Positions 1 to 5,162 of a stretch of DNA of 5,162 nucleotides are shown here, piece by piece. Location of the stretch: the IMG/VR virus record IMGVR_UViG_2529292977_000014, one strand, 5' to 3'. This stretch comes from a virus. Lineage: Duplodnaviria; Heunggongvirae; Uroviricota; Caudoviricetes. Within the stretch, counting starts at the first letter, position 1; each line of letters opens with the position of its first letter. The notes under the pieces were generated by a model. It worked only from the letters and a program-made list of their open reading frames with translations, was not told where the DNA came from and ran no database searches. Position numbers and translations under genes: made by a program.

Positions 1-234
1 ATGCGTGATGATCGTTTTAATTCCCTGAAACAGGAATTTTCCGGCGTTCCTGATGATGCGGCTGATGCGCTTTCGTCAATGCCAGAGCTTATTAGAGCGG
101 CTTTTTTCTTACTTTCCACGAGAGAATATAAATCAACGGGGCTTGATGTACTGAATATCGCCGCCGATTATGCGGAATATGTGGCAGAGGCGCGTTATAG
201 AAGAAAATTTCCTGAGGATGTAAGCCATGCGTGA
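1..234 (+). CDS. hypothetical protein (possibly 5'-partial; window starts at an in-frame ATG but the true start may lie upstream)
   Basis: Open frame 1-234 (77 aa) ending at TGA 232-234; same strand as and overlapping by 8 nt the next ORF; no recognisable motif. Confidence 0.35.
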   Translation: MRDDRFNSLKQEFSGVPDDAADALSSMPELIRAAFFLLSTREYKSTGLDVLNIAADYAEYVAEARYRRKFPEDVSHA

Positions 235-460
235 TATTTACCACCAAACAATAGACCGCGCATTTCTTGCACTTTCTCACAGTGAAAACATGATGGAAAT
301 ATTTCGCATATGGCTTGAAACACTTGGCGACAATGAACGCGACAAACAAAAATCAAGAATTGCCACGGCATTAATAACGCTTCTTGAGCCTGTAATAATG
401 GAACTGCAAGAAATAGATCTATTGCACGACAGATATAAAGAACAGCACACCGGAGAATAA
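227..460 (+). CDS. hypothetical small protein
   Basis: ATG at 227 preceded by GAGGA (213-217) at about 9 nt; 77 aa; overlaps the upstream ORF stop, suggesting operon coupling; no recognisable family. Confidence 0.45.
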   Translation: MRDIYHQTIDRAFLALSHSENMMEIFRIWLETLGDNERDKQKSRIATALITLLEPVIMELQEIDLLHDRYKEQHTGE

Positions 461-465
461 AAATA

Positions 466-765
466 ATGAAACTTAAATATTCTGGCTTAACTGCCAGTGG
501 CAACACTCACCCTAAATTTACGCGCGGTGATATTTACCGCGACCAGTACGGCGGCACGGTAATGATTAAGGGCGTGGAAGAACGGCGCGTAACCTACCGC
601 CGTGAAGGTTACGAATATGATTGCGTGATGCCTGTTTATCAGTTCCGGCGTGATTTTTCTCTGGTACAGACCGCGCCGCATAACGTGCCCACCAGCAACG
701 CCAGGGCACGGGCAAACATCCAGAAGCTGAAAACCATGGTTAACGGATTCAGGGGCAAGAAATGA
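466..765 (+). CDS. hypothetical protein, translationally coupled to downstream replication gene
   Basis: ATG at 466 preceded by GGAGA (450-454); 99 aa; its stop overlaps the start of the next gene as ATGA (762-765); basic, Arg/Tyr-rich; no recognisable family. Confidence 0.5.
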   Translation: MKLKYSGLTASGNTHPKFTRGDIYRDQYGGTVMIKGVEERRVTYRREGYEYDCVMPVYQFRRDFSLVQTAPHNVPTSNARARANIQKLKTMVNGFRGKK

Positions 766-2162
766 AAAGCGCACCGAACTTAAAAAAACAGCCTTACGAC
801 AAGATGACCGAAGTCATTATTTTTGCGGGTAGTGATGCCTGGGCACATGCGAAACAGTGGCAGGAACAGGACGGGCGACTGGCTGGCGATAATGTGCCTC
901 CCGTTGTGCTGGCTGATGATCAACTGGATGAACTGGCAGAACTGAGAATCATCGACGAGGGGCGCTATTGTGTCCGGCTGTACAAGGCAGGCCACATCAG
1001 GCCATCAAATATTAATGCCATTGCGCACAAGCTGGCGGCGGCGGGTGTAACTGATGCGAATTATTACCCCGAAGGGATGCACAGCCATATGCGGGAGAAC
1101 TGGCGCGAATACCTGGAACGGGTGCGCGGGAAAGAGCCGGCGGAAGAAAAAAACCACCAGCGAAAAACCACGCTACCGATGAGCGTTGGATCTACCGGAT
1201 ACGACACGCAACTGGATTACGTGGTTAAGGGGATTATTCCGGCGGTATCGCTATGCAGCATATACGGGGCTAGCGGGTCCTATAAATCATTCCTTGCCGG
1301 ATCGTGGGCGTGCCATGTTGCCACTGGTCGCCAGTGGGGAGGCCGCAGGGTTGCACATGGTGCGGTTCTCTATGTGGTTGGTGAAGGCGGTATAGGTGTT
1401 CCGCGTCGTGTAAAAGCCTGGGAGGTTGTGCACGATGAGCAGGTGAAAAATCTGTATCTGGTAAACCGCCCCATCTTTCCGGCTGCCCCGCTTGATGTTG
1501 ATGAAATGGTTATCGCTGCCCGTCAGGTGGAGCGGGAAACGGGTAAACCTGTACGCATGATTATTCTGGATACGCTGGCGCGTTGCTTTGGTGGGAATGA
1601 TGAAAATGATTCCCGTGATATGGGGGCGTTTATCCGTGGTTGTGACGAACTGAAACGACGCACAGGGGCCACGGTGCTGGTGGTTCACCATTCCGGCAAG
1701 GATGAGACGAAAGGCGCGCGCGGTTCCAGTGCATTTCGTGCTTCGCTGGATGCTGAATACCGGATACGCAGGGAGGACGCAGGAAGCGAAGCGCTGGTTA
1801 TCTCATGCACCAAAATGAAGGACGCGGAGGAACTCAAAGAAGCCGCATATGACTTACGCGTGGTGGAGCTTTTTACCGACGCTGACGGTGAATTAATCAC
1901 GTCGCTGGTGGTGGTGGATGATCCGCGCCCTCCTGTTGAACTGGAGCGCATCGAGGAGGCAGGGAACAAGACGGAAAACCATACCGCGCTATGGGGGTGC
2001 ATCCGTTCACGCACACAGAACGGCGACAAGTGCACGATCCCGCTGTTACGTGATGACATGAAAAAGCTGGGGTATGAAATGAAAAACTTCCGGCGCTGGC
2101 TGTACAAGCTGGAAAAAGATGGGGTTATTCGTATCGATGGGGATGATGTAGCGCCGCTATAA
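762..2162 (+). CDS. replication helicase/initiator, RecA-like P-loop NTPase (RepA/DnaB-like, AAA_25-type) with a putative C-terminal DNA-binding domain
   Basis: 466-aa ORF. Walker A GASGSYKS at aa 169-176 (nt 1266-1289); Walker B-like hydrophobic run ending in Asp, MIILD, at aa 266-270; LVVHHSGKDETKGARGSSAF motif at aa 306-325, typical of RepA-like helicases; basic C-terminal region (aa ~400-466) resembles a winged-helix origin-binding domain; iteron array begins at its stop codon. Confidence 0.75.
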   Translation: MKSAPNLKKQPYDKMTEVIIFAGSDAWAHAKQWQEQDGRLAGDNVPPVVLADDQLDELAELRIIDEGRYCVRLYKAGHIRPSNINAIAHKLAAAGVTDANYYPEGMHSHMRENWREYLERVRGKEPAEEKNHQRKTTLPMSVGSTGYDTQLDYVVKGIIPAVSLCSIYGASGSYKSFLAGSWACHVATGRQWGGRRVAHGAVLYVVGEGGIGVPRRVKAWEVVHDEQVKNLYLVNRPIFPAAPLDVDEMVIAARQVERETGKPVRMIILDTLARCFGGNDENDSRDMGAFIRGCDELKRRTGATVLVVHHSGKDETKGARGSSAFRASLDAEYRIRREDAGSEALVISCTKMKDAEELKEAAYDLRVVELFTDADGELITSLVVVDDPRPPVELERIEEAGNKTENHTALWGCIRSRTQNGDKCTIPLLRDDMKKLGYEMKNFRRWLYKLEKDGVIRIDGDDVAPL

Positions 2163-2353
2163 AAGTGAGGAGCAAAAGCGAGGGGGATAGAAAGAGGGCC
2201 AAAATTAGCCCGCTCTCCCTCACTTTTCGACCTGTATACATCCTCAAAAGTGAGGGGTAAAAAAATACTTATGAAACACACACATAGAAAAACCGAAAAT
2301 CCCAACTGCGACGAAGTGAGACGCTTGAAAAAGTGAGGCGAAAAAGTGAGAGG
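2161..2353. repeat. iteron-like repeat array; candidate origin of replication
   Basis: Exact AAAAGTGAGG at 2161-2170, 2246-2255 and 2329-2338; exact inverted copy CCTCACTTTT at 2218-2227; degenerate copies at 2174-2183 (AAAAGCGAGG), 2342-2351 (AAAAGTGAGA) and 2312-2321 (CGAAGTGAGA); A+T-rich tract 2256-2300 between copies; located immediately 3' of the helicase gene. Confidence 0.6.
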
Positions 2354-2362
2354 TTGCGAGAA

Positions 2363-2614
2363 ATGACCCAAAAACGCAGAGACAGAACAGAGCCAAAATA
2401 TAAAGCGTTAGACATGACTGAGCACACCTTAAAGGTGGCAATCAGAACGATAGACCGCCACACGCGGGAAGGATACGCGAAGGAACATCCCGACCTGATA
2501 AGCGCATTCATGACCACGGCGGCGGCAAACTTTGCCACGCTGACAGAACGGGAGATTGCCGAAGCGGAACAGGTAACAACCATCAACGTTAAAACCGGAG
2601 AGGTGGAATTATGA
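2363..2614 (+). CDS. hypothetical small protein, coupled to ssb
   Basis: ATG at 2363 preceded by GAGAGG (2348-2353); 83 aa; stop overlaps the ssb start as ATGA (2611-2614). The six-frame track extends this frame to 2333 (GTG), but the ATG with an RBS is preferred. Confidence 0.5.
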   Translation: MTQKRRDRTEPKYKALDMTEHTLKVAIRTIDRHTREGYAKEHPDLISAFMTTAAANFATLTEREIAEAEQVTTINVKTGEVEL

Positions 2615-3021
2615 CGGCACAGATAGCCGCTTACGGGCGGCTGGTGGACGACCCGCAGGTAAAACAGACCAGCAAGGGCACACCGATGACGCTGGCGCGT
2701 ATGGCGGTATCTTTGCCATGCAGCCAGGCACAGGACGGACAGGCGACGTTATGGTTATCGGTCATCGCATTTGGCAAACAGGCCGGCTTCCTGGCTAAAC
2801 ATCAAAAAGGCGATGTTGCCAGCGTATCCGGCACGATGCAGGTAAGCCAGTGGACCGGACAGAACGGAGAAACGCGGCAGGGCTGGCAGGTTATCGCAGA
2901 CAGCGTAATCAGTGCCCGCGCGGCACGTCCAGGCGGGAACAGACGCAAAACCACAGGCACACAGGGTAATCAGCCACCAGCGGGAGGCGATGACCCTTAC
3001 GGTGATGATATTTCGTTCTGA
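2611..3021 (+). CDS. ssb: single-stranded DNA-binding protein (SSB), short form
   Basis: 136 aa. The N-terminal OB-fold pattern parallels E. coli SSB (GRLVDDPQV vs GNLGQDPEV; LWLSVIAFGKQA vs WHRVVLFGKLA; SQWTGQNGETR vs RKWTDQSGQDR); Gly/Pro/Gln-rich linker; acidic C-terminal tip DDPYGDDISF resembling the SSB DDDIPF tail; RBS GGAGAGGTGG at 2596-2605. Confidence 0.8.
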   Translation: MTAQIAAYGRLVDDPQVKQTSKGTPMTLARMAVSLPCSQAQDGQATLWLSVIAFGKQAGFLAKHQKGDVASVSGTMQVSQWTGQNGETRQGWQVIADSVISARAARPGGNRRKTTGTQGNQPPAGGDDPYGDDISF

Positions 3022-3031
3022 GGGGGTGACG

Positions 3032-3304
3032 ATGGTACATGACCGCATAGCGGAGGAACTGGAGGCGAAAGGCTTTTACCGGAGGGCGGCGGCGCGATGG
3101 GGTGAAGTCATGCAGCTGGTGGAGACAGACAAGGAACGGCATCACATCACGATGCGACGGCTGGAATGTTCAAGGAAGGCACAGAGGGCACCGGAGCCGC
3201 CGGATAATTTCGGAGACCTGAAAAAGGCAGTCGATCGCACTTATGCCGAAATGGGTATAGATGGTGCTGGTGATGAAATATGGCGCAATTACCAGGACAG
3301 CTAA
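3032..3304 (+). CDS. PerC-family-like transcriptional regulator (Pch/PerC homologue), tentative
   Basis: 90 aa; ATG at 3032 preceded by GGGGGTGA; N-terminal motif EELEAKGFYRRAAARWGEVM matches my recollection of the conserved PerC/Pch motif (LE-KG-WRRAA-RW); size typical of the family; followed by an intrinsic terminator. Confidence 0.55.
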   Translation: MVHDRIAEELEAKGFYRRAAARWGEVMQLVETDKERHHITMRRLECSRKAQRAPEPPDNFGDLKKAVDRTYAEMGIDGAGDEIWRNYQDS

Positions 3305-3310
3305 TCAAAC

Positions 3311-3334
3311 AGCCGGAGAAATCCGGCTTTTTTT
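3311..3334 (+). terminator. rho-independent terminator (T1)
   Basis: Stem AGCCGGA (3311-3317) / TCCGGCT (3322-3328) with loop GAAA, followed by a T-run to 3334; 7 nt after the stop of the PerC-like gene. Confidence 0.7.
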
Positions 3335-3430
3335 GCACCAGTTGAAACGGTATGGCGCATTACCGGGTTTTCGTCACGGTCAGGCATAGTTACTATCTGA
3401 AACAAACAGACACAACAGAGGAAAAAAACA

Positions 3431-3655
3431 ATGCCGATGAAATTTGATGAGATATTAAAACAGCGTGATAAATACCATGCTGACAACATGGAGACGATGA
3501 GCATCAATGATTACCGCGCATTCCTGGAGACGGGCGCACTGATTGAAAAGGATCAGCATGGTTTTGTGAGATGTGCTCTATCCGGTGAAATGCTGGCGGT
3601 AAATCCTGAACAGATAGATGCATTGATAGAATTTCTGAAAGAGATCAGAGACTGA
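3431..3655 (+). CDS. hypothetical small protein (orphan, terminator-bracketed cargo gene)
   Basis: ATG at 3431 preceded by AGAGGA (about 3416-3422); 74 aa; acidic; own upstream intergenic region (3337-3430) and bracketed by terminators T1 and T2/T3; no recognisable family. Confidence 0.5.
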   Translation: MPMKFDEILKQRDKYHADNMETMSINDYRAFLETGALIEKDQHGFVRCALSGEMLAVNPEQIDALIEFLKEIRD

Positions 3656-3674
3656 GCCAGCACACAGCACACAT

Positions 3675-3697
3675 AGCCGGAGCAATCCGGCTTTTTT
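3675..3697 (+). terminator. rho-independent terminator (T2), near-duplicate of T1
   Basis: Stem AGCCGGA (3675-3681) / TCCGGCT (3686-3692) with loop GCAA, T-run 3692-3697; 26 of 29 nt identical to the T1 region. Confidence 0.7.
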
Positions 3698-3703
3698 GCG
3701 CCC

Positions 3704-3745
3704 AAAAAAAGCCCGATAAGGTCAGAGGGTTCTTATCGGGCTTTT
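3704..3745. terminator. second, possibly bidirectional, intrinsic terminator (T3)
   Basis: A-tract 3704-3710, perfect 10-bp stem GCCCGATAAG (3711-3720) / CTTATCGGGC (3732-3741), 11-nt loop, T-run 3742-3745. Confidence 0.6.
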
Positions 3746-3821
3746 GCATATGAGGTTTTTGGATGCACTGGCGTTCGTGATCGGGATAATCATTTCATAA
3801 TTTGCAACATAACTCAATATC

Positions 3822-3872
3822 ATTGCATAAAATGCAATTCTGATTATAATCAGGACTGGATAAACATCCAGT
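3822..3872 (+). promoter_or_regulatory. candidate repressor- or activator-controlled promoter with three palindromic operators upstream of the capsid operon
   Basis: Consensus -10 TATAAT at 3845-3850 inside a perfect 14-bp palindrome CTGATTATAATCAG (3840-3853); weak -35 TTGCAT (3823-3828, 16-bp spacer) inside palindrome ATTGCA-N5-TGCAAT (3822-3838); third palindrome ACTGGAT-N4-ATCCAGT (3855-3872) near the predicted start site; AT-rich intergenic region following two terminators. Confidence 0.45.
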
Positions 3873-3906
3873 TATGATTTTTTTAGTCGAAGAGGAATTT
3901 CTTACT

Positions 3907-4113
3907 ATGGCTGAAGAGAAAAAAAGCGGTGTTTCGGTGTACATAAGCCCCGAAATCGTGGAGGTGCTCAAGCAGCGCCACAAAAAAAACTATGAAGCTG
4001 GCGTTGCGGCTGGACTGGATCCGCTGATGACGCCGGAGCCGTCGATAGGTTCACTTGTACGCTCTTATTTACTTGCGGCGCTTGGGATGCATAAAAATTA
4101 TGGGGGTGAATAA
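3907..4113 (+). CDS. hypothetical small protein preceding the capsid gene (possible capsid-accessory protein)
   Basis: ATG at 3907 preceded by AAGAGGA (3890-3896); 68 aa; stop TAA overlaps the capsid ATG (TAATG, 4111-4115). The track ORF begins at ATG 3874, which lacks an RBS and sits inside the operator palindrome. Confidence 0.5.
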   Translation: MAEEKKSGVSVYISPEIVEVLKQRHKKNYEAGVAAGLDPLMTPEPSIGSLVRSYLLAALGMHKNYGGE

Positions 4114-5162
4114 TGGCAGGCAAAGCAACGGCACTTAACACTAACCAGCTTTTCATGTACCTGAATCGCGGGGATATTGCGGATTTTAAATTCAGCCCTC
4201 TGTTTACCACGCTGTTTTTCCCGAACGTGGCGACATTCAGCACGCAAAACATCATGCTGGATACCCTGGACATTGAAGAAGTCACCATGTCGGCGTTTTG
4301 TTCGCCTATGGTGGGTAGCCAGGTTCAGCGCGATAAAGGGTACGAAACCAGCACAATCAAACCTGGCTACATGAAGCCAAAGCACGAAATCGATCCAACG
4401 AAAACCATCATGCGCATGGCTGGAGAAGATCCGGCACAGCTTAACGACCCTACCTATCGCCGTATGCGCCTGATTACTGGCAACATGCGCCGCCAGATAA
4501 ACGCCATTAAGGCACGCGTGGAATGGCTGGCGGTGAATGCGGTAACGACCGGAAAAAACATCATTGAGGGCGAAGGCATAGAACGCTATGAAATCGACTG
4601 GAAAATACCGGAAAACTGCATCATAGAGCAGGCCAAGGGTAAAAAATGGTCCGAGCAGGATAAAGACATGCACGACCCAATCTATGACATCGAGCTTTAT
4701 GCTGATCAGGCTGGTTGCCCCGCAAACGTCATGATTATGGGCGCTGAGGTATGGCGCACATTACGCAGCTTTAAAAAATTCCGTGAGCTGTACGATCTTT
4801 CCCGTGGTTCAGAATCCGCCGCCGAACTGGCCTGTAAAAACCTGGGCGAAGTGGTGAGCTTTAAAGGCTATCTTGGTGATCTGGCCCTTATCGTCTATTC
4901 CGGCAAATACACTGACAGCGATGGTACCGAAAAATATTTCCTTGAGCCTGATTTGCTGGTCCTGGGTAACACCAACAATAAAGGGCTGGTGGCCTATGGT
5001 GCGATAATGGATCAGGAAGCGGTAAGAACGGGCGCTGCGGCACTGGGGATGGCGGATATCTCTGATGTGATGATTGCTCAGGGCCTGCTGTTGCCTGCGA
5101 TTGTGGTGCTGGGGCTAAATATCTGGACCACCAACGATAACGCGCTCTATGCGTCGGGTTTA
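4113..5162 (+). CDS. major capsid protein, lambda gpE-like (Phage_cap_E family), 3'-partial
   Basis: Open frame from ATG 4113 to the window end (350 codons, no stop), RBS GGGGGTG at 4102-4108. Strong motif-by-motif correspondence with lambda gpE as recalled: FKFSPLFTTLFF vs FKFDPLFLRLFF; KPGYMKPKHEIDP vs TPGYVKPKHEVNP; DPTYRRMRLITGNMR vs DPAYRRRRIIMQNMR; KWSEQDKDMHDP vs EWSKRDKSTYDP; SFKGYLGDLALIVYSGKY vs SYKGMYGDVAIVVYSGQY; VLGNT in both. Confidence 0.85.
   Translation, partial: MAGKATALNTNQLFMYLNRGDIADFKFSPLFTTLFFPNVATFSTQNIMLDTLDIEEVTMSAFCSPMVGSQVQRDKGYETSTIKPGYMKPKHEIDPTKTIMRMAGEDPAQLNDPTYRRMRLITGNMRRQINAIKARVEWLAVNAVTTGKNIIEGEGIERYEIDWKIPENCIIEQAKGKKWSEQDKDMHDPIYDIELYADQAGCPANVMIMGAEVWRTLRSFKKFRELYDLSRGSESAAELACKNLGEVVSFKGYLGDLALIVYSGKYTDSDGTEKYFLEPDLLVLGNTNNKGLVAYGAIMDQEAVRTGAAALGMADISDVMIAQGLLLPAIVVLGLNIWTTNDNALYASGL

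Follow-up and report, generated by a model that had tools for sequence, protein, structure and literature searches.

A gpE-type capsid gene in a window that very probably derives from the phage-inducible chromosomal island CP-933C of Escherichia coli O157:H7

Introduction

The satellite EcCICFT073, a Gram-negative phage-inducible chromosomal island (PICI), was described in 2018 with a capsid gene (c1499), a head decoration gene (c1500), two cosN sites and helper-dependent alpA induction (PMC6092414), and Rpp is known to redirect TerS (PMC6739421). EcCICFT073 corresponds to O-island 51 (OI-51) (PMC6092414), which is also called CP-933C or Sp7 in E. coli O157:H7 and on which RgdR and PchE were identified (PMC3378721). 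Of the 29 reference Gram-negative PICIs, 21 carry a major capsid gene (PMC10111431). Islands of the EcCICFT073 type serve as models for the hijacking of lambda-type packaging by satellites, and OI-51 matters in addition because RgdR and PchE touch on virulence regulation in O157:H7.

Here, a stretch of 5,162 nucleotides (the window) was analyzed, for which a sequence-only reading had proposed a satellite-like element with its own E-type capsid protein in a possibly undescribed arrangement. Re-discovery of a published satellite class from raw sequence is a check on the reader's reasoning and not new biology. What is added here concerns the purifying selection on PICI capsids, their distance from phage capsids, a resemblance to the lambda scaffold Nu3, and the operators and LexA-like site in front of the capsid operon.

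Results

The window belongs to an 11-kb island of E. coli O157:H7

Positions 1–5035 of the window are 100% identical to many E. coli O157:H7 chromosomes, and this stretch very probably represents the central 5 kb of CP-933C (OI-51, Sp7). In the O157:H7 chromosomes, the island comprises 10,977 bp, lies between the chromosomal genes roxA and phoQ (RefSeq) and is flanked by imperfect att-like direct repeats of 75 nt with a perfect core of 21 nt. All of its genes are located on a single strand (RefSeq), in the order int, alpA, icd-like, rgdR, RepA helicase, iteron ori, SSB, PerC/PchE, 68-aa ORF, gpE-type capsid, gpD-type decoration, 137-aa ORF, cos, Nu1-like terS, cos. The left end encodes a tyrosine integrase (Pfam Phage_integrase and Arm-DNA-bind_3) followed by AlpA (Phage_AlpA, 5.4e-17), and the decoration and terS genes match Pfam HDPD and Phage_Nu1, respectively. 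Portal, protease, large terminase, tail and lysis genes were found neither in the RefSeq gene list of the island nor when its other ORFs were compared with Pfam and PHROG, and the window gave no Rfam match and the att region no tRNA.

The island thus combines the characters of a classical Gram-negative PICI, namely int and alpA, a replication module of its own, a small size with att repeats, helper dependence by gene content, and cos with terS. We assign CP-933C with high confidence to this class, as an 11-kb element of the EcCICFT073 type with roxA and phoQ as its neighbors, and this confidence is a joint one that covers the CP-933C identity, the PICI class and the morphogenesis/packaging module described below. 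The satellite-like element with its own E-type capsid is therefore borne out by the 10,977-bp island with its int, alpA, capsid, decoration, terS and cos, and the proposed inspection of the flanks in O157:H7 chromosomes recovered int, alpA, att-like repeats and terS and no tail or lysis genes. The alternative that had been offered, an atypically ordered prophage, falls with an 11-kb island between roxA and phoQ that lacks tail, lysis, portal, protease and large terminase genes; what lies between the chromosomal genes is not a complete lambdoid prophage of at least 35 kb with terminase, portal, tail and lysis genes in conventional order. Nor is the arrangement undescribed, as in EcCICFT073 this module occupies the same chromosomal site and CP-933C/OI-51/Sp7 has been published (PMC6092414, PMC10111431, PMC3378721); the satellite arrangement is already known and its class is in the literature. 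The module was found in 598 of 5,426 complete E. coli genomes and at several att sites, and the compact order of intact genes recurs at no fewer than four different integration sites.

Genes and origin upstream of the capsid operon

All genes of the upstream part are encoded on the plus strand. The gene at 466–765 is rgdR (ECs1581 family, 99 aa; Pfam DUF4222, 1.6e-24), and its translation has RGD at residues 20–22, as has the 99-aa ECs1581/RgdR protein from OI-51 (PMC3378721); the product is an island-encoded regulator of type III secretion. It is followed at 762–2162 by the gene for a RepA-family replicative helicase of 466 aa (Pfam AAA_25, 2.4e-43; RefSeq 'helicase RepA family protein'), which is the replication initiator of the island and whose transcript and protein increased 5.3-fold and up to 34-fold, respectively, in EDL933 treated with ciprofloxacin (PMC11125564, S1 table). 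An iteron-type replication origin (2161–2353, without assigned strand) is located directly 3' of the helicase gene and carries AAAGTGAG(G) six to seven times, in either orientation, together with repeat families D1–D3 and inverted repeats I2–I5; in Gram-negative PICIs, the ori is located immediately 3' of the replication gene (PMC6092414). Downstream are genes for a single-stranded DNA-binding protein SSB of 136 aa (2611–3021; Pfam SSB, 9.3e-16; RefSeq annotation) and a PerC-family regulator (3032–3304; Pfam PerC, 3.9e-43), the PerC-like gene of OI-51 having been named PchE (PMC3378721), with a terminator hairpin at 3311–3328 after the PerC gene.

The helicase, origin, SSB and PerC-like regulator had all been recognized from the letters and are supported here by the AAA_25, SSB and PerC matches and the AAAGTGAG iterons, and portal, protease and scaffold genes are indeed absent upstream of the capsid gene. 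That a 68-aa ORF and an operator-rich promoter precede the capsid gene was also correct, whereas the content of the interval between PerC and the promoter had been overlooked: it holds a 74-aa ORF (3431–3655; phrog_1957, no assigned function) and two or three terminator hairpins, with a terminator at 3675–3692 and a second hairpin at 3707–3745 downstream of the ORF.

The promoter of the capsid operon and its LexA-like site

The promoter/operator region of the capsid operon (3789–3873, plus strand) was read from the sequence and contains the repeats D1, I3 and I4. The predicted promoter consists of a -35 element TTGCAT (3823–3828), a spacer of 16 nt and a -10 element TATAAT (3845–3850). An inverted repeat, ATTGCAT-AAA-ATGCAAT, covers 3822–3838, the palindrome TGATTATAATCA spans the -10 element, and the palindrome ACTGGATAAACATCCAGT is located at 3855–3872 within a LexA-box-like site, GACTGGATAAACATCCAGTT (3854–3873). 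These operators are kept in the islands of CFT073, FDAARGOS_943 and U90.

The capsid operon might be SOS-repressed in the manner of SaPI operon I, which is controlled by LexA (reference cited in PMC6092414), with the palindrome at 3854–3873 serving as a LexA box until DNA damage occurs. A matrix derived from 18 E. coli LexA boxes (PMC3009722) gives the site 20.3 bits, a mid-range value for real boxes, and the site is of the CTGG...CCAG type found in ruvA and cho. It is the sole match of at least 8 bits in the window, only 3 of 167,214 scored loci positions reach its score or above, and it directly follows the -10 element and is kept in the CFT073 and FDAARGOS_943 islands. However, in EDL933 exposed to ciprofloxacin the capsid showed a -1.8-fold change in transcript and a 1.0–1.6-fold change in protein, compared with the strong response of the helicase given above (PMC11125564), and both the capsid protein and the product of the small ORF in front of it are detectable in EDL933 without induction. 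The U90 and helper-embedded islands, which are more distant, lack the box, and a hairpin or an operator for some other protein would explain the site just as well. Because ciprofloxacin did not induce the capsid gene in the published data despite the genuine-looking score, LexA control was set back to a minor rival that we consider unlikely.

A conserved small ORF precedes the capsid gene

The conserved 68-aa ORF (3907–4113, plus strand) belongs to phrog_3255, a family without known function, and its stop overlaps the capsid ATG (TAATG), so that it is predicted to be translationally coupled to the capsid gene. The frame can be read from 3874 on, which would give 79 aa. The start at 3907 is favored because the N-terminus MAEEK is conserved in 11 homologues from E. 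coli and Salmonella, because AGAGGA provides a ribosome site and because RefSeq annotates this start, and the longer reading is probably not used. Its dN/dS values range from 0.08 to 0.44, and its product, EDL933_1785, was detected by proteomics in EDL933 (PMC11125564). The AlphaFold model (pLDDT 71.7) presents an extended N-terminal stretch and two helices, for which Foldseek returned nothing at E <= 0.001. The proposed comparison with decoration and scaffold families gave no Pfam or NCBIfam match, there was no PDB sequence match either, and decoration, scaffold or ribbon-helix-helix regulator roles, which were sought with Pfam, NCBIfam, PHROG, PDB and Foldseek, found no supporting match.

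The gpE-type capsid gene and its junction with codB

The ORF starting with the ATG at 4113 matches Pfam Phage_cap_E (PF03864) over residues 28–309 with an E-value of 3.5e-42 and 145 bits, against a cut-off of 22.9, and so the profile-HMM comparison that had been proposed confirms the E-type capsid gene. In the window, codons 1 to about 308 of 351 of this gpE-family (HK97-fold) major capsid gene are present (4113–5035, plus strand). The full-length O157:H7 protein (351 aa) matches lambda gpE structures (PDB 7VI9, E 1.6e-80) and is 43% identical to lambda gpE over 327 aa; its membership of the gpE family is therefore evident from a score above the Pfam gathering score and from full-length similarity to gpE. 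It also matches PDB 3BQW (E 9e-232), the solved crystal structure of c1499 from CFT073, to which it is 97% identical.

All six PICI capsid genes examined were intact, and dN/dS was 0.13–0.16 in unsaturated pairs, which indicates that purifying selection acts on them. PICI capsids reach no more than 47% identity with any of 50,697 phage records, and 54–64% among PICI lineages. The capsid protein was detected by proteomics in EDL933, also without induction (PMC11125564). Within the joint assignment made above, we regard the capsid gene with high confidence as the main gene of the island's own morphogenesis/packaging module.

The sequence-only reading had let the capsid interval extend to 5162, and its final part is in fact codB from 5029. 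Many E. coli genomes have a codB that is 100% identical to this fragment (5029–5162, plus strand; cytosine permease, from codon 245), which lies outside the island. The match to the island runs up to 5035 and that to codB sets in at 5029, leaving 7 nt of microhomology (CGGGCGC) with the frame preserved, such that the capsid codons continue in frame into CodB residues. Neither GTDB representative genomes nor JGI metagenome contigs nor IMG/VR contain an exact 36-mer across the junction, and none of the complete E. coli genomes spans the junction. It is either a chimera of assembly or library construction or a real rearrangement; if real, the capsid gene in the source molecule would be inactive.

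Decoration, scaffold-like and packaging genes downstream

Downstream of the capsid gene in O157:H7, the decoration protein is 36% identical to lambda gpD over 76 aa. The 137-aa ORF matches phrog_1999 with 1.7e-68, residues 117–200 of lambda Nu3 match the profile of the same family with 2.7e-26, and hhalign gave E 9e-5 and a probability of 59% for this link, whereas direct BLASTP against lambda gpC/Nu3 was not significant. On account of these profile matches, a resemblance of the 137-aa ORF to the C-terminal scaffold domain of Nu3 is suggested. In some genomes it bears the NCBI name 'head-tail connector', for which NCBIfam, Pfam and PDB offered no support, and the profiles favor the Nu3 C-terminal domain. 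Lambda W, FI and FII were discarded as relatives of the small island ORFs, with which they have no PHROG families in common.

Two exact lambda cosN 12-mers in inverted orientation flank the Nu1-like terS. Its product of 180 aa is 36% identical to lambda Nu1 over its full length to residue 180 and matches Pfam Phage_Nu1 with 3e-23. Rpp proteins are about 144–153 aa long and have an N-terminal TerS-like wHTH and their own C-terminal dimerization helix without the TerL-binding part of TerS; RppA from CFT073 matches Nu1 in the N-terminal HTH only (residues 8–40 with Pfam, 7–47 with PHROGs). With 180 aa aligned to Nu1 including the C-terminal region, the O157 protein was rejected as an Rpp.

Discussion

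Proposed life cycle and role of the capsid set

For CP-933C, the course of induction, replication and packaging is inferred by transfer from EcCICFT073. By this analogy, a lambdoid helper would turn on alpA, Int would excise the island, and replication would proceed from the iteron origin by means of the RepA helicase and SSB. Concatemers of the island would be cut at its own cos sites and packaged by the large terminase of the helper, recruited through the small-terminase-like protein of the island, and the helper would supply portal, protease, head completion proteins and tails.

The capsid, decoration and Nu3-like proteins may assemble on the helper portal and protease into or with helper heads and thereby supplement or modify the shells that carry the island, a role that we put forward tentatively and hold to be possible though doubtful. 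Intact capsid genes with low dN/dS, proteomic detection and occurrence in 598 of 5,426 genomes count for functional genes. Against a structural role stands the finding that deletion of c1499 or c1500 in EcCICFT073 left the interference with lambda in place; moreover, the island in which c1499 had been replaced by a cat marker still transferred, and no phenotype of c1499 was found (PMC6092414). EcCICFT073 was packaged in phage-sized heads (PMC6092414), and when the EcCICFT073 genes located after ori were expressed singly, rppA alone blocked lambda (published data). More far-reaching and rather improbable is the idea that the capsid, decoration and Nu3-like proteins of EcCICFT073-type islands constitute a satellite-specific shell-forming set, which would make heads of its own, possibly of altered size or stability, with only portal and protease from the helper; in that case, the choice of helpers and assays would account for the absence of a phenotype in EcCICFT073. 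If this were true, 'classical' PICIs would be an evolutionary intermediate between capsid-stealing satellites and cf-PICIs. Most Gram-negative PICIs keep a conserved and expressed gpE/gpD pair without known phenotype and, as the present analysis suggests, a Nu3-like protein too, and solving the role of this pair would clarify how satellites evolved from capsid thieves to capsid makers.

Other readings of the capsid gene

Instead of contributing to shells that carry the island, the capsid homologue could be a factor for size redirection and interference that co-assembles with the helper capsid to give small heads excluding the 45–50 kb helper genome. Precedents are Ccm from SaPIbov5, a capsid homologue that does just this, and PmCI172, which encodes a capsid homologue and has small heads (PMC6092414); the island's own decoration protein and Nu3-like scaffold candidate and the separate grouping of PICI capsids also speak for such a function. 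With a capsid 97% identical to that of O157, however, EcCICFT073 occupies phage-sized heads, and the persistence of lambda interference without c1499 or c1500 and the block of lambda by rppA alone tell against it in the same way, so that we consider a Ccm-like function distinctly improbable. Still further from the evidence is a decaying P4-like or lambdoid prophage remnant, as the name 'cryptic prophage CP-933C' implies, in which the capsid gene would be a leftover without role. OI-51/Sp7 has been described as an unusual, highly degraded prophage consisting mainly of P4 remnants (PMC3378721), and c1499 is without phenotype (PMC6092414). Yet the same gene order with intact genes at four or more integration sites, the capsid dN/dS values, the intact att repeats and cos sites, the mobilization of the sister island EcCICFT073 at high frequency by lambda and phi80 (PMC6092414, PMC6739421) and the detection of island proteins by mass spectrometry in EDL933 make decay very unlikely.

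The presence of capsid, decoration, scaffold-like and small terminase genes might also recall a capsid-forming PICI (cf-PICI), which makes whole heads with proteins of its own and hijacks nothing but tails. Since cf-PICIs encode capsid, protease, portal, head-tail connectors, HNH, terS and terL (10.1101/2022.09.08.507074) and portal, protease, connector, HNH and terL genes are all missing from the 11-kb island, this reading is extremely improbable and, like that of a full prophage, was rejected on gene content. EDL933 does harbor a cf-PICI, EcCIEDL933 (15.4 kb), whose organization was called unusual beside the classical EcCICFT073 and EcCIED1a (10.1101/2022.09.08.507074), and because its size and gene content do not fit the 11-kb island it is taken to be a different element.

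Comparison with known systems

EcCIEDL933 shares with the O157 island int, alpA and rep of the same kind and is likewise a satellite with a major capsid protein gene, and differs in also encoding protease, portal, connectors, HNH, terS and terL, of which the O157 island has only terS, and in forming small heads of its own (10.1101/2022.09.08.507074). SaPIbov5 resembles the O157 island as a satellite that uses helper cos packaging and carries a homologue of a helper-type major capsid protein (PMC6092414; 10.1101/2022.09.08.507074). Host phylum and capsid lineage are different, and Ccm leads to small capsids and blocks the helper, whereas with the EcCICFT073-type capsid interference persists on deletion and neither small heads nor a phenotype were observed (PMC6092414). 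Helper-embedded PICIs (11capE type, PMC10111431) share this backbone, in which the capsid and decoration genes follow SSB, and their capsids are 54% identical to that of O157; they sit inside gene E of a lambdoid prophage and not in the chromosome, they do not have the 68-aa ORF, and an HTH regulator replaces the Nu3-like ORF.

With lambda, the island has in common homologues of Nu1, Nu3, D and E and an identical cosN 12-mer, the 137-aa ORF being related through phrog_1999 to the C-terminal 85 residues of Nu3. It lacks A (large terminase), W, B (portal), the C protease, FI, FII and tail and lysis genes, its order of capsid, decoration, scaffold-like gene and terS contrasts with Nu1, A, W, B, C/Nu3, D, E in lambda, and its head module comes after the replication module on an element of 11 kb. 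EcCICFT073 differs in carrying the 144-aa RppA between its cos sites in place of the full-length 180-aa Nu1-like terS of O157, and its 68-aa ORF is just 66% identical. Otherwise the two islands agree in the chromosomal site next to phoQ, in the order of PerC, 68-aa ORF, capsid, decoration, 137-aa ORF, cos-flanked packaging gene and 93-aa ORF, in two lambda-type cosN sites and in the conserved promoter operators and LexA-like site, and their capsid, decoration and 137-aa proteins are 97%, 98% and 96% identical, respectively.

Gene content of the window and of the surrounding island

In a megablast search of 5,426 complete E. coli genomes, window positions 1-5035 were 100% identical to many O157:H7 chromosomes, and in strain TW14359 (locus L001) the window falls within an island bounded by roxA (ycfD) and phoQ. 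Only two base differences from TW14359 were seen across the 5,035 island bases, at 87 and 304, and for O157:H7 genomes other than TW14359 the identity was reported as 100.0%. In order, the island contains an integrase gene, an AlpA-family regulator, Icd-like genes, three small ORFs, DUF4222, RepA helicase, an 83-aa ORF, SSB, PerC, a 74-aa ORF, a 68-aa ORF, the major capsid gene (351 aa), the head decoration gene (111 aa), a 137-aa ORF, small terminase (180 aa), and a 93-aa ORF. Pfam matches in the island included Int, AlpA, HDPD, and Phage_Nu1. Imperfect att-like direct repeats of 75 nt with a perfect 21-nt core, one immediately outside int and the other immediately before phoQ, are separated by 10,977 bp, and no tRNA gene was detected at this site by a tRNA scan. 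Genes for tail, lysis, portal, protease, and large terminase proteins are absent from the O157 island. The sequence-only reading had proposed a satellite-like element with its own E-type capsid protein, and the combination of int, AlpA, direct repeats, and small terminase with the lack of tail and lysis genes bears this out; the flanks consist of chromosomal neighbors and not of a prophage reaching 35 kb, and the capsid ORF does match a capsid profile.

Six-frame ORF analysis and Pfam scans place all genes of the window on the plus strand. Two small ORFs (1-234 and 227-460) precede the DUF4222 gene (466-765), which is rgdR (ECs1581), encoding a 99-aa protein with RGD at residues 20-22, an OI-51 product known to regulate both type III secretion and motility (PMC3378721). 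The rgdR stop codon overlaps the start of the RepA/AAA_25 helicase gene (762-2162) in the sequence ATGA. A non-coding stretch (2161-2353), in which repeat analysis revealed six to seven AAAGTGAG(G) iterons, is followed by the 83-aa ORF, the genes for SSB (2611-3021) and for a PerC-family regulator (3032-3304) that corresponds to PchE of OI-51 (PMC3378721), and the 74-aa ORF (3431-3655). Between the PerC gene and a promoter region that precedes the 68-aa ORF (3907-4113), a hairpin scan indicated two or three terminator hairpins. The stop codon of the 68-aa ORF overlaps the capsid ATG, and the capsid ORF (from 4113) matches the Pfam profile Phage_cap_E (E 3.5e-42). The earlier observation that a capsid gene lies beyond replication and regulatory genes, with no portal, protease, or scaffold gene upstream, was therefore correct. 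A 30-nt terminator hairpin, AGCCGGAG-A/C-AATCCGGCTTTTTT, occurs in three near-identical copies (window 3305-3336 and 3669-3700, L001 25944-25973), terminating the PerC gene, the 74-aa ORF, and the 137-aa ORF, respectively, as if marking module boundaries; it is also present in the related islands of CFT073 and FDAARGOS_943.

The island is an already described element, named OI-51, CP-933C, or Sp7 (PMC3378721), and its satellite class has been published. The suggestion of a possibly undescribed arrangement did not hold, as the same module occupies the same site in CFT073 (PerC, 68-aa ORF, capsid, decoration, 137-aa ORF, 144-aa ORF, 93-aa ORF, phoQ), where it is EcCICFT073, the published model Gram-negative PICI, of which O-island 51 has been recognized as the counterpart (PMC6092414). 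The satellite interpretation was right, for an arrangement already described, and the remaining interest lies in the role of the PICI capsid module and in the origin of a junction with codB.

The capsid::codB junction

Window positions 5029-5162 match codB, which encodes the cytosine permease, at 100% identity in the same megablast comparison, and none of the 5,426 complete genomes spans both parts. Base-by-base comparison showed that island identity stops at 5035 and codB identity begins at 5029, leaving a 7-nt microhomology, CGGGCGC (5029-5035), across which the reading frame is kept and codB is joined from codon 245. Of the 351 capsid codons, the window therefore retains 1 to about 308, and CodB residues come next. 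In O157:H7 genomes codB is located more than 1 Mb away from the island, and an exact 36-mer over the junction had no hit in GTDB representative genomes, in JGI metagenome contigs, or in IMG/VR. The junction may be a genuine rearrangement or a chimera that arose in the assembly or the library, and it does not affect the remaining analysis. The phage record OR845282.1 ("Escherichia phage ECO95 1-6-1"; 4.7 kb, without annotation, and with O157:H7 ATCC 43895 as listed host) shows, at its own positions 3121-3229, 89% identity to the codB part of the window and seems to contain bacterial permease-like DNA.

Expression and promoter of the capsid operon

In EDL933 treated with ciprofloxacin, CP-933C helicase RNA increased 5.3-fold and its protein up to 34-fold, capsid RNA changed -1.8-fold and its protein 1.0-1.6-fold, and the product of the small ORF preceding the capsid gene, EDL933_1785, was detected by proteomics (PMC11125564). 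By these data the capsid operon is active, with no obvious induction by SOS. A candidate promoter was recognized by eye (TTGCAT at 3823-3828, 16 nt, TATAAT at 3845-3850) and was not listed by the scan tool because the consensus of the latter is TTGACA. Three symmetric elements overlap it: an inverted repeat ATTGCAT-AAA-ATGCAAT (3822-3838) over the -35, the palindrome TGATTATAATCA over the -10, and the LexA-box-like palindrome GACTGGATAAACATCCAGTT (3854-3873) directly 3' of the -10. The -35 and -10 elements (3822-3853) are both kept in the 66%-identical U90 island, where the -35 repeat has a similar perfect form, ATTGCA-AAAAA-TGCAAT.

The product of the 68-aa ORF is a candidate binder of these operator-like elements over -35 and -10. 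Its N-terminal residues, MAEEK, are conserved, and homologues occur in E. coli and Salmonella; searches of Pfam, PHROG, and NCBIfam gave no family of known function, and no PDB sequence matched. Its AlphaFold model (pLDDT 71.7) combines two helices with an extended N-terminal segment and gave no significant Foldseek match; that it might be a ribbon-helix-helix autoregulator is a guess from sequence.

Control of the capsid promoter by LexA was evaluated using a score matrix derived from 18 LexA boxes of E. coli (PMC3009722). GACTGGATAAACATCCAGTT scores 20.3 bits, in the mid-range of genuine boxes and reached or exceeded at only 3 of 167,214 positions, and it is kept in the CFT073 and FDAARGOS_943 islands, not in more distant ones. 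However, as ciprofloxacin did not induce the capsid, LexA control appears unlikely, and no description of such control was found in the literature searched for any Gram-negative PICI capsid operon. Several islands have other LexA-box-like sites close to their left end: between int and alpA (L001 18160, 19.0 bits, and 18049, 13.4 bits, within 18049-18179), just upstream of an alpA-like gene (locus L005, 5081-5100, 24.8 bits), and after alpA (locus L007, 2727-2746, 20.5 bits). The alpA gene of EcCICFT073 is reported to respond to helper phage and not to SOS (PMC6092414).

Spread and conservation of the module

Of the 5,426 complete E. coli genomes, 598 carry the module at a coverage of at least 80%. 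Further sites of the same backbone are a position near yejO, the interval from gcd to hpt, and gene E of lambdoid prophages, where the insertions are the published helper-embedded PICIs. Capsid genes were intact in all six PICIs compared, with dN/dS of 0.13-0.16 for unsaturated pairs and 0.04 between two helper-embedded copies, and dN/dS was also below 1 for the decoration gene and the small ORFs. These genes are maintained and are not debris. No phage capsid more than 47% identical to the island capsid (L001 24113-25168) was found by tblastn among 50,697 phage records, whereas between PICI lineages the capsids share 54-64% identity, suggesting that the satellite capsids form a long-separate, satellite-specific branch of the gpE family.

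Comparison with lambda and with EcCICFT073

The O157 capsid is 43% identical to lambda gpE over 327 aa, and the decoration protein 36% identical to gpD over 76 aa. The 137-aa ORF (L001 25529-25942), downstream of the decoration gene and outside the window, matches phrog_1999 (1.7e-68), as do residues 117-200 of lambda Nu3 (2.7e-26), its C-terminal 85 residues. Direct BLASTP against Nu3 was not significant, and hhalign with a small family alignment aligned residues 39-107 to Nu3 114-178 (E 9e-5, probability 59%). With moderate confidence, the 137-aa ORF is predicted to be homologous to the C-terminal scaffold domain of Nu3, which makes it a scaffold candidate; if so, the island would have four lambda head gene homologues (E, D, Nu3, and Nu1) without A, W, B, C protease, FI, and FII. 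Some NCBI records name this ORF "phage head-tail connector protein", a label rejected here in favor of the profile it shares with the Nu3 C-terminus.

The O157 island is, with high confidence, a classical PICI. It cannot be the capsid-forming PICI EcCIEDL933, which is 15.4 kb long and carries protease, portal, connectors, HNH, and terL (10.1101/2022.09.08.507074). By analogy with EcCICFT073, a helper phage would induce alpA, excision would follow, replication would employ RepA, ori, and SSB, and after cos cleavage the helper large terminase would package the DNA through the island small terminase, with portal, protease, and tails coming from the helper. In EcCICFT073, cosN is present twice and packaging is into heads of full size (PMC6092414). 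In the O157 island, two exact copies of the lambda cosN 12-mer GGGCGGCGACCT, in inverted orientation and each inside an inverted repeat of about 47 nt, bracket the Nu1-like terS (L001 26003-26014 and 26870-26881), so that inversion of this segment, or cutting at either end, could in principle occur.

As to the role of the capsid, we tentatively prefer that capsid, decoration, and Nu3-like proteins co-assemble with helper head proteins, a possibility favored by the adjacency of capsid and decoration genes in every lineage examined, by the constraint under which both evolve, and by the production of the proteins. Genetics in EcCICFT073 speaks against it, as deletion of c1499 (capsid) or c1500 (decoration) did not relieve lambda interference and no phenotype was seen for c1499 (PMC6092414). 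Ccm-like redirection of head size is a weaker rival to co-assembly. Among 29 reference Gram-negative PICIs, 21 have a major capsid gene, which is not needed for transfer (PMC10111431). Apart from the RppA gene of EcCICFT073, none of the post-ori genes, each expressed alone, blocks lambda (PMC6739421).

The O157 capsid is 97% identical to that of CFT073, for which a crystal structure exists under the title "putative capsid protein of prophage" (PDB 3BQW, matched by the O157 capsid at E 9e-232). The two islands differ in that EcCICFT073 has the 144-aa RppA, which turns helper TerS towards the island cos (PMC6739421), in place of the 180-aa protein. The presence of terS in some Gram-negative PICIs has been noted before (PMC6092414). 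The 180-aa protein is 36% identical to lambda Nu1 over its full length, C-terminal part included, whereas RppA matches only the N-terminal HTH, and therefore the O157 island carries a true small terminase where EcCICFT073 has Rpp.
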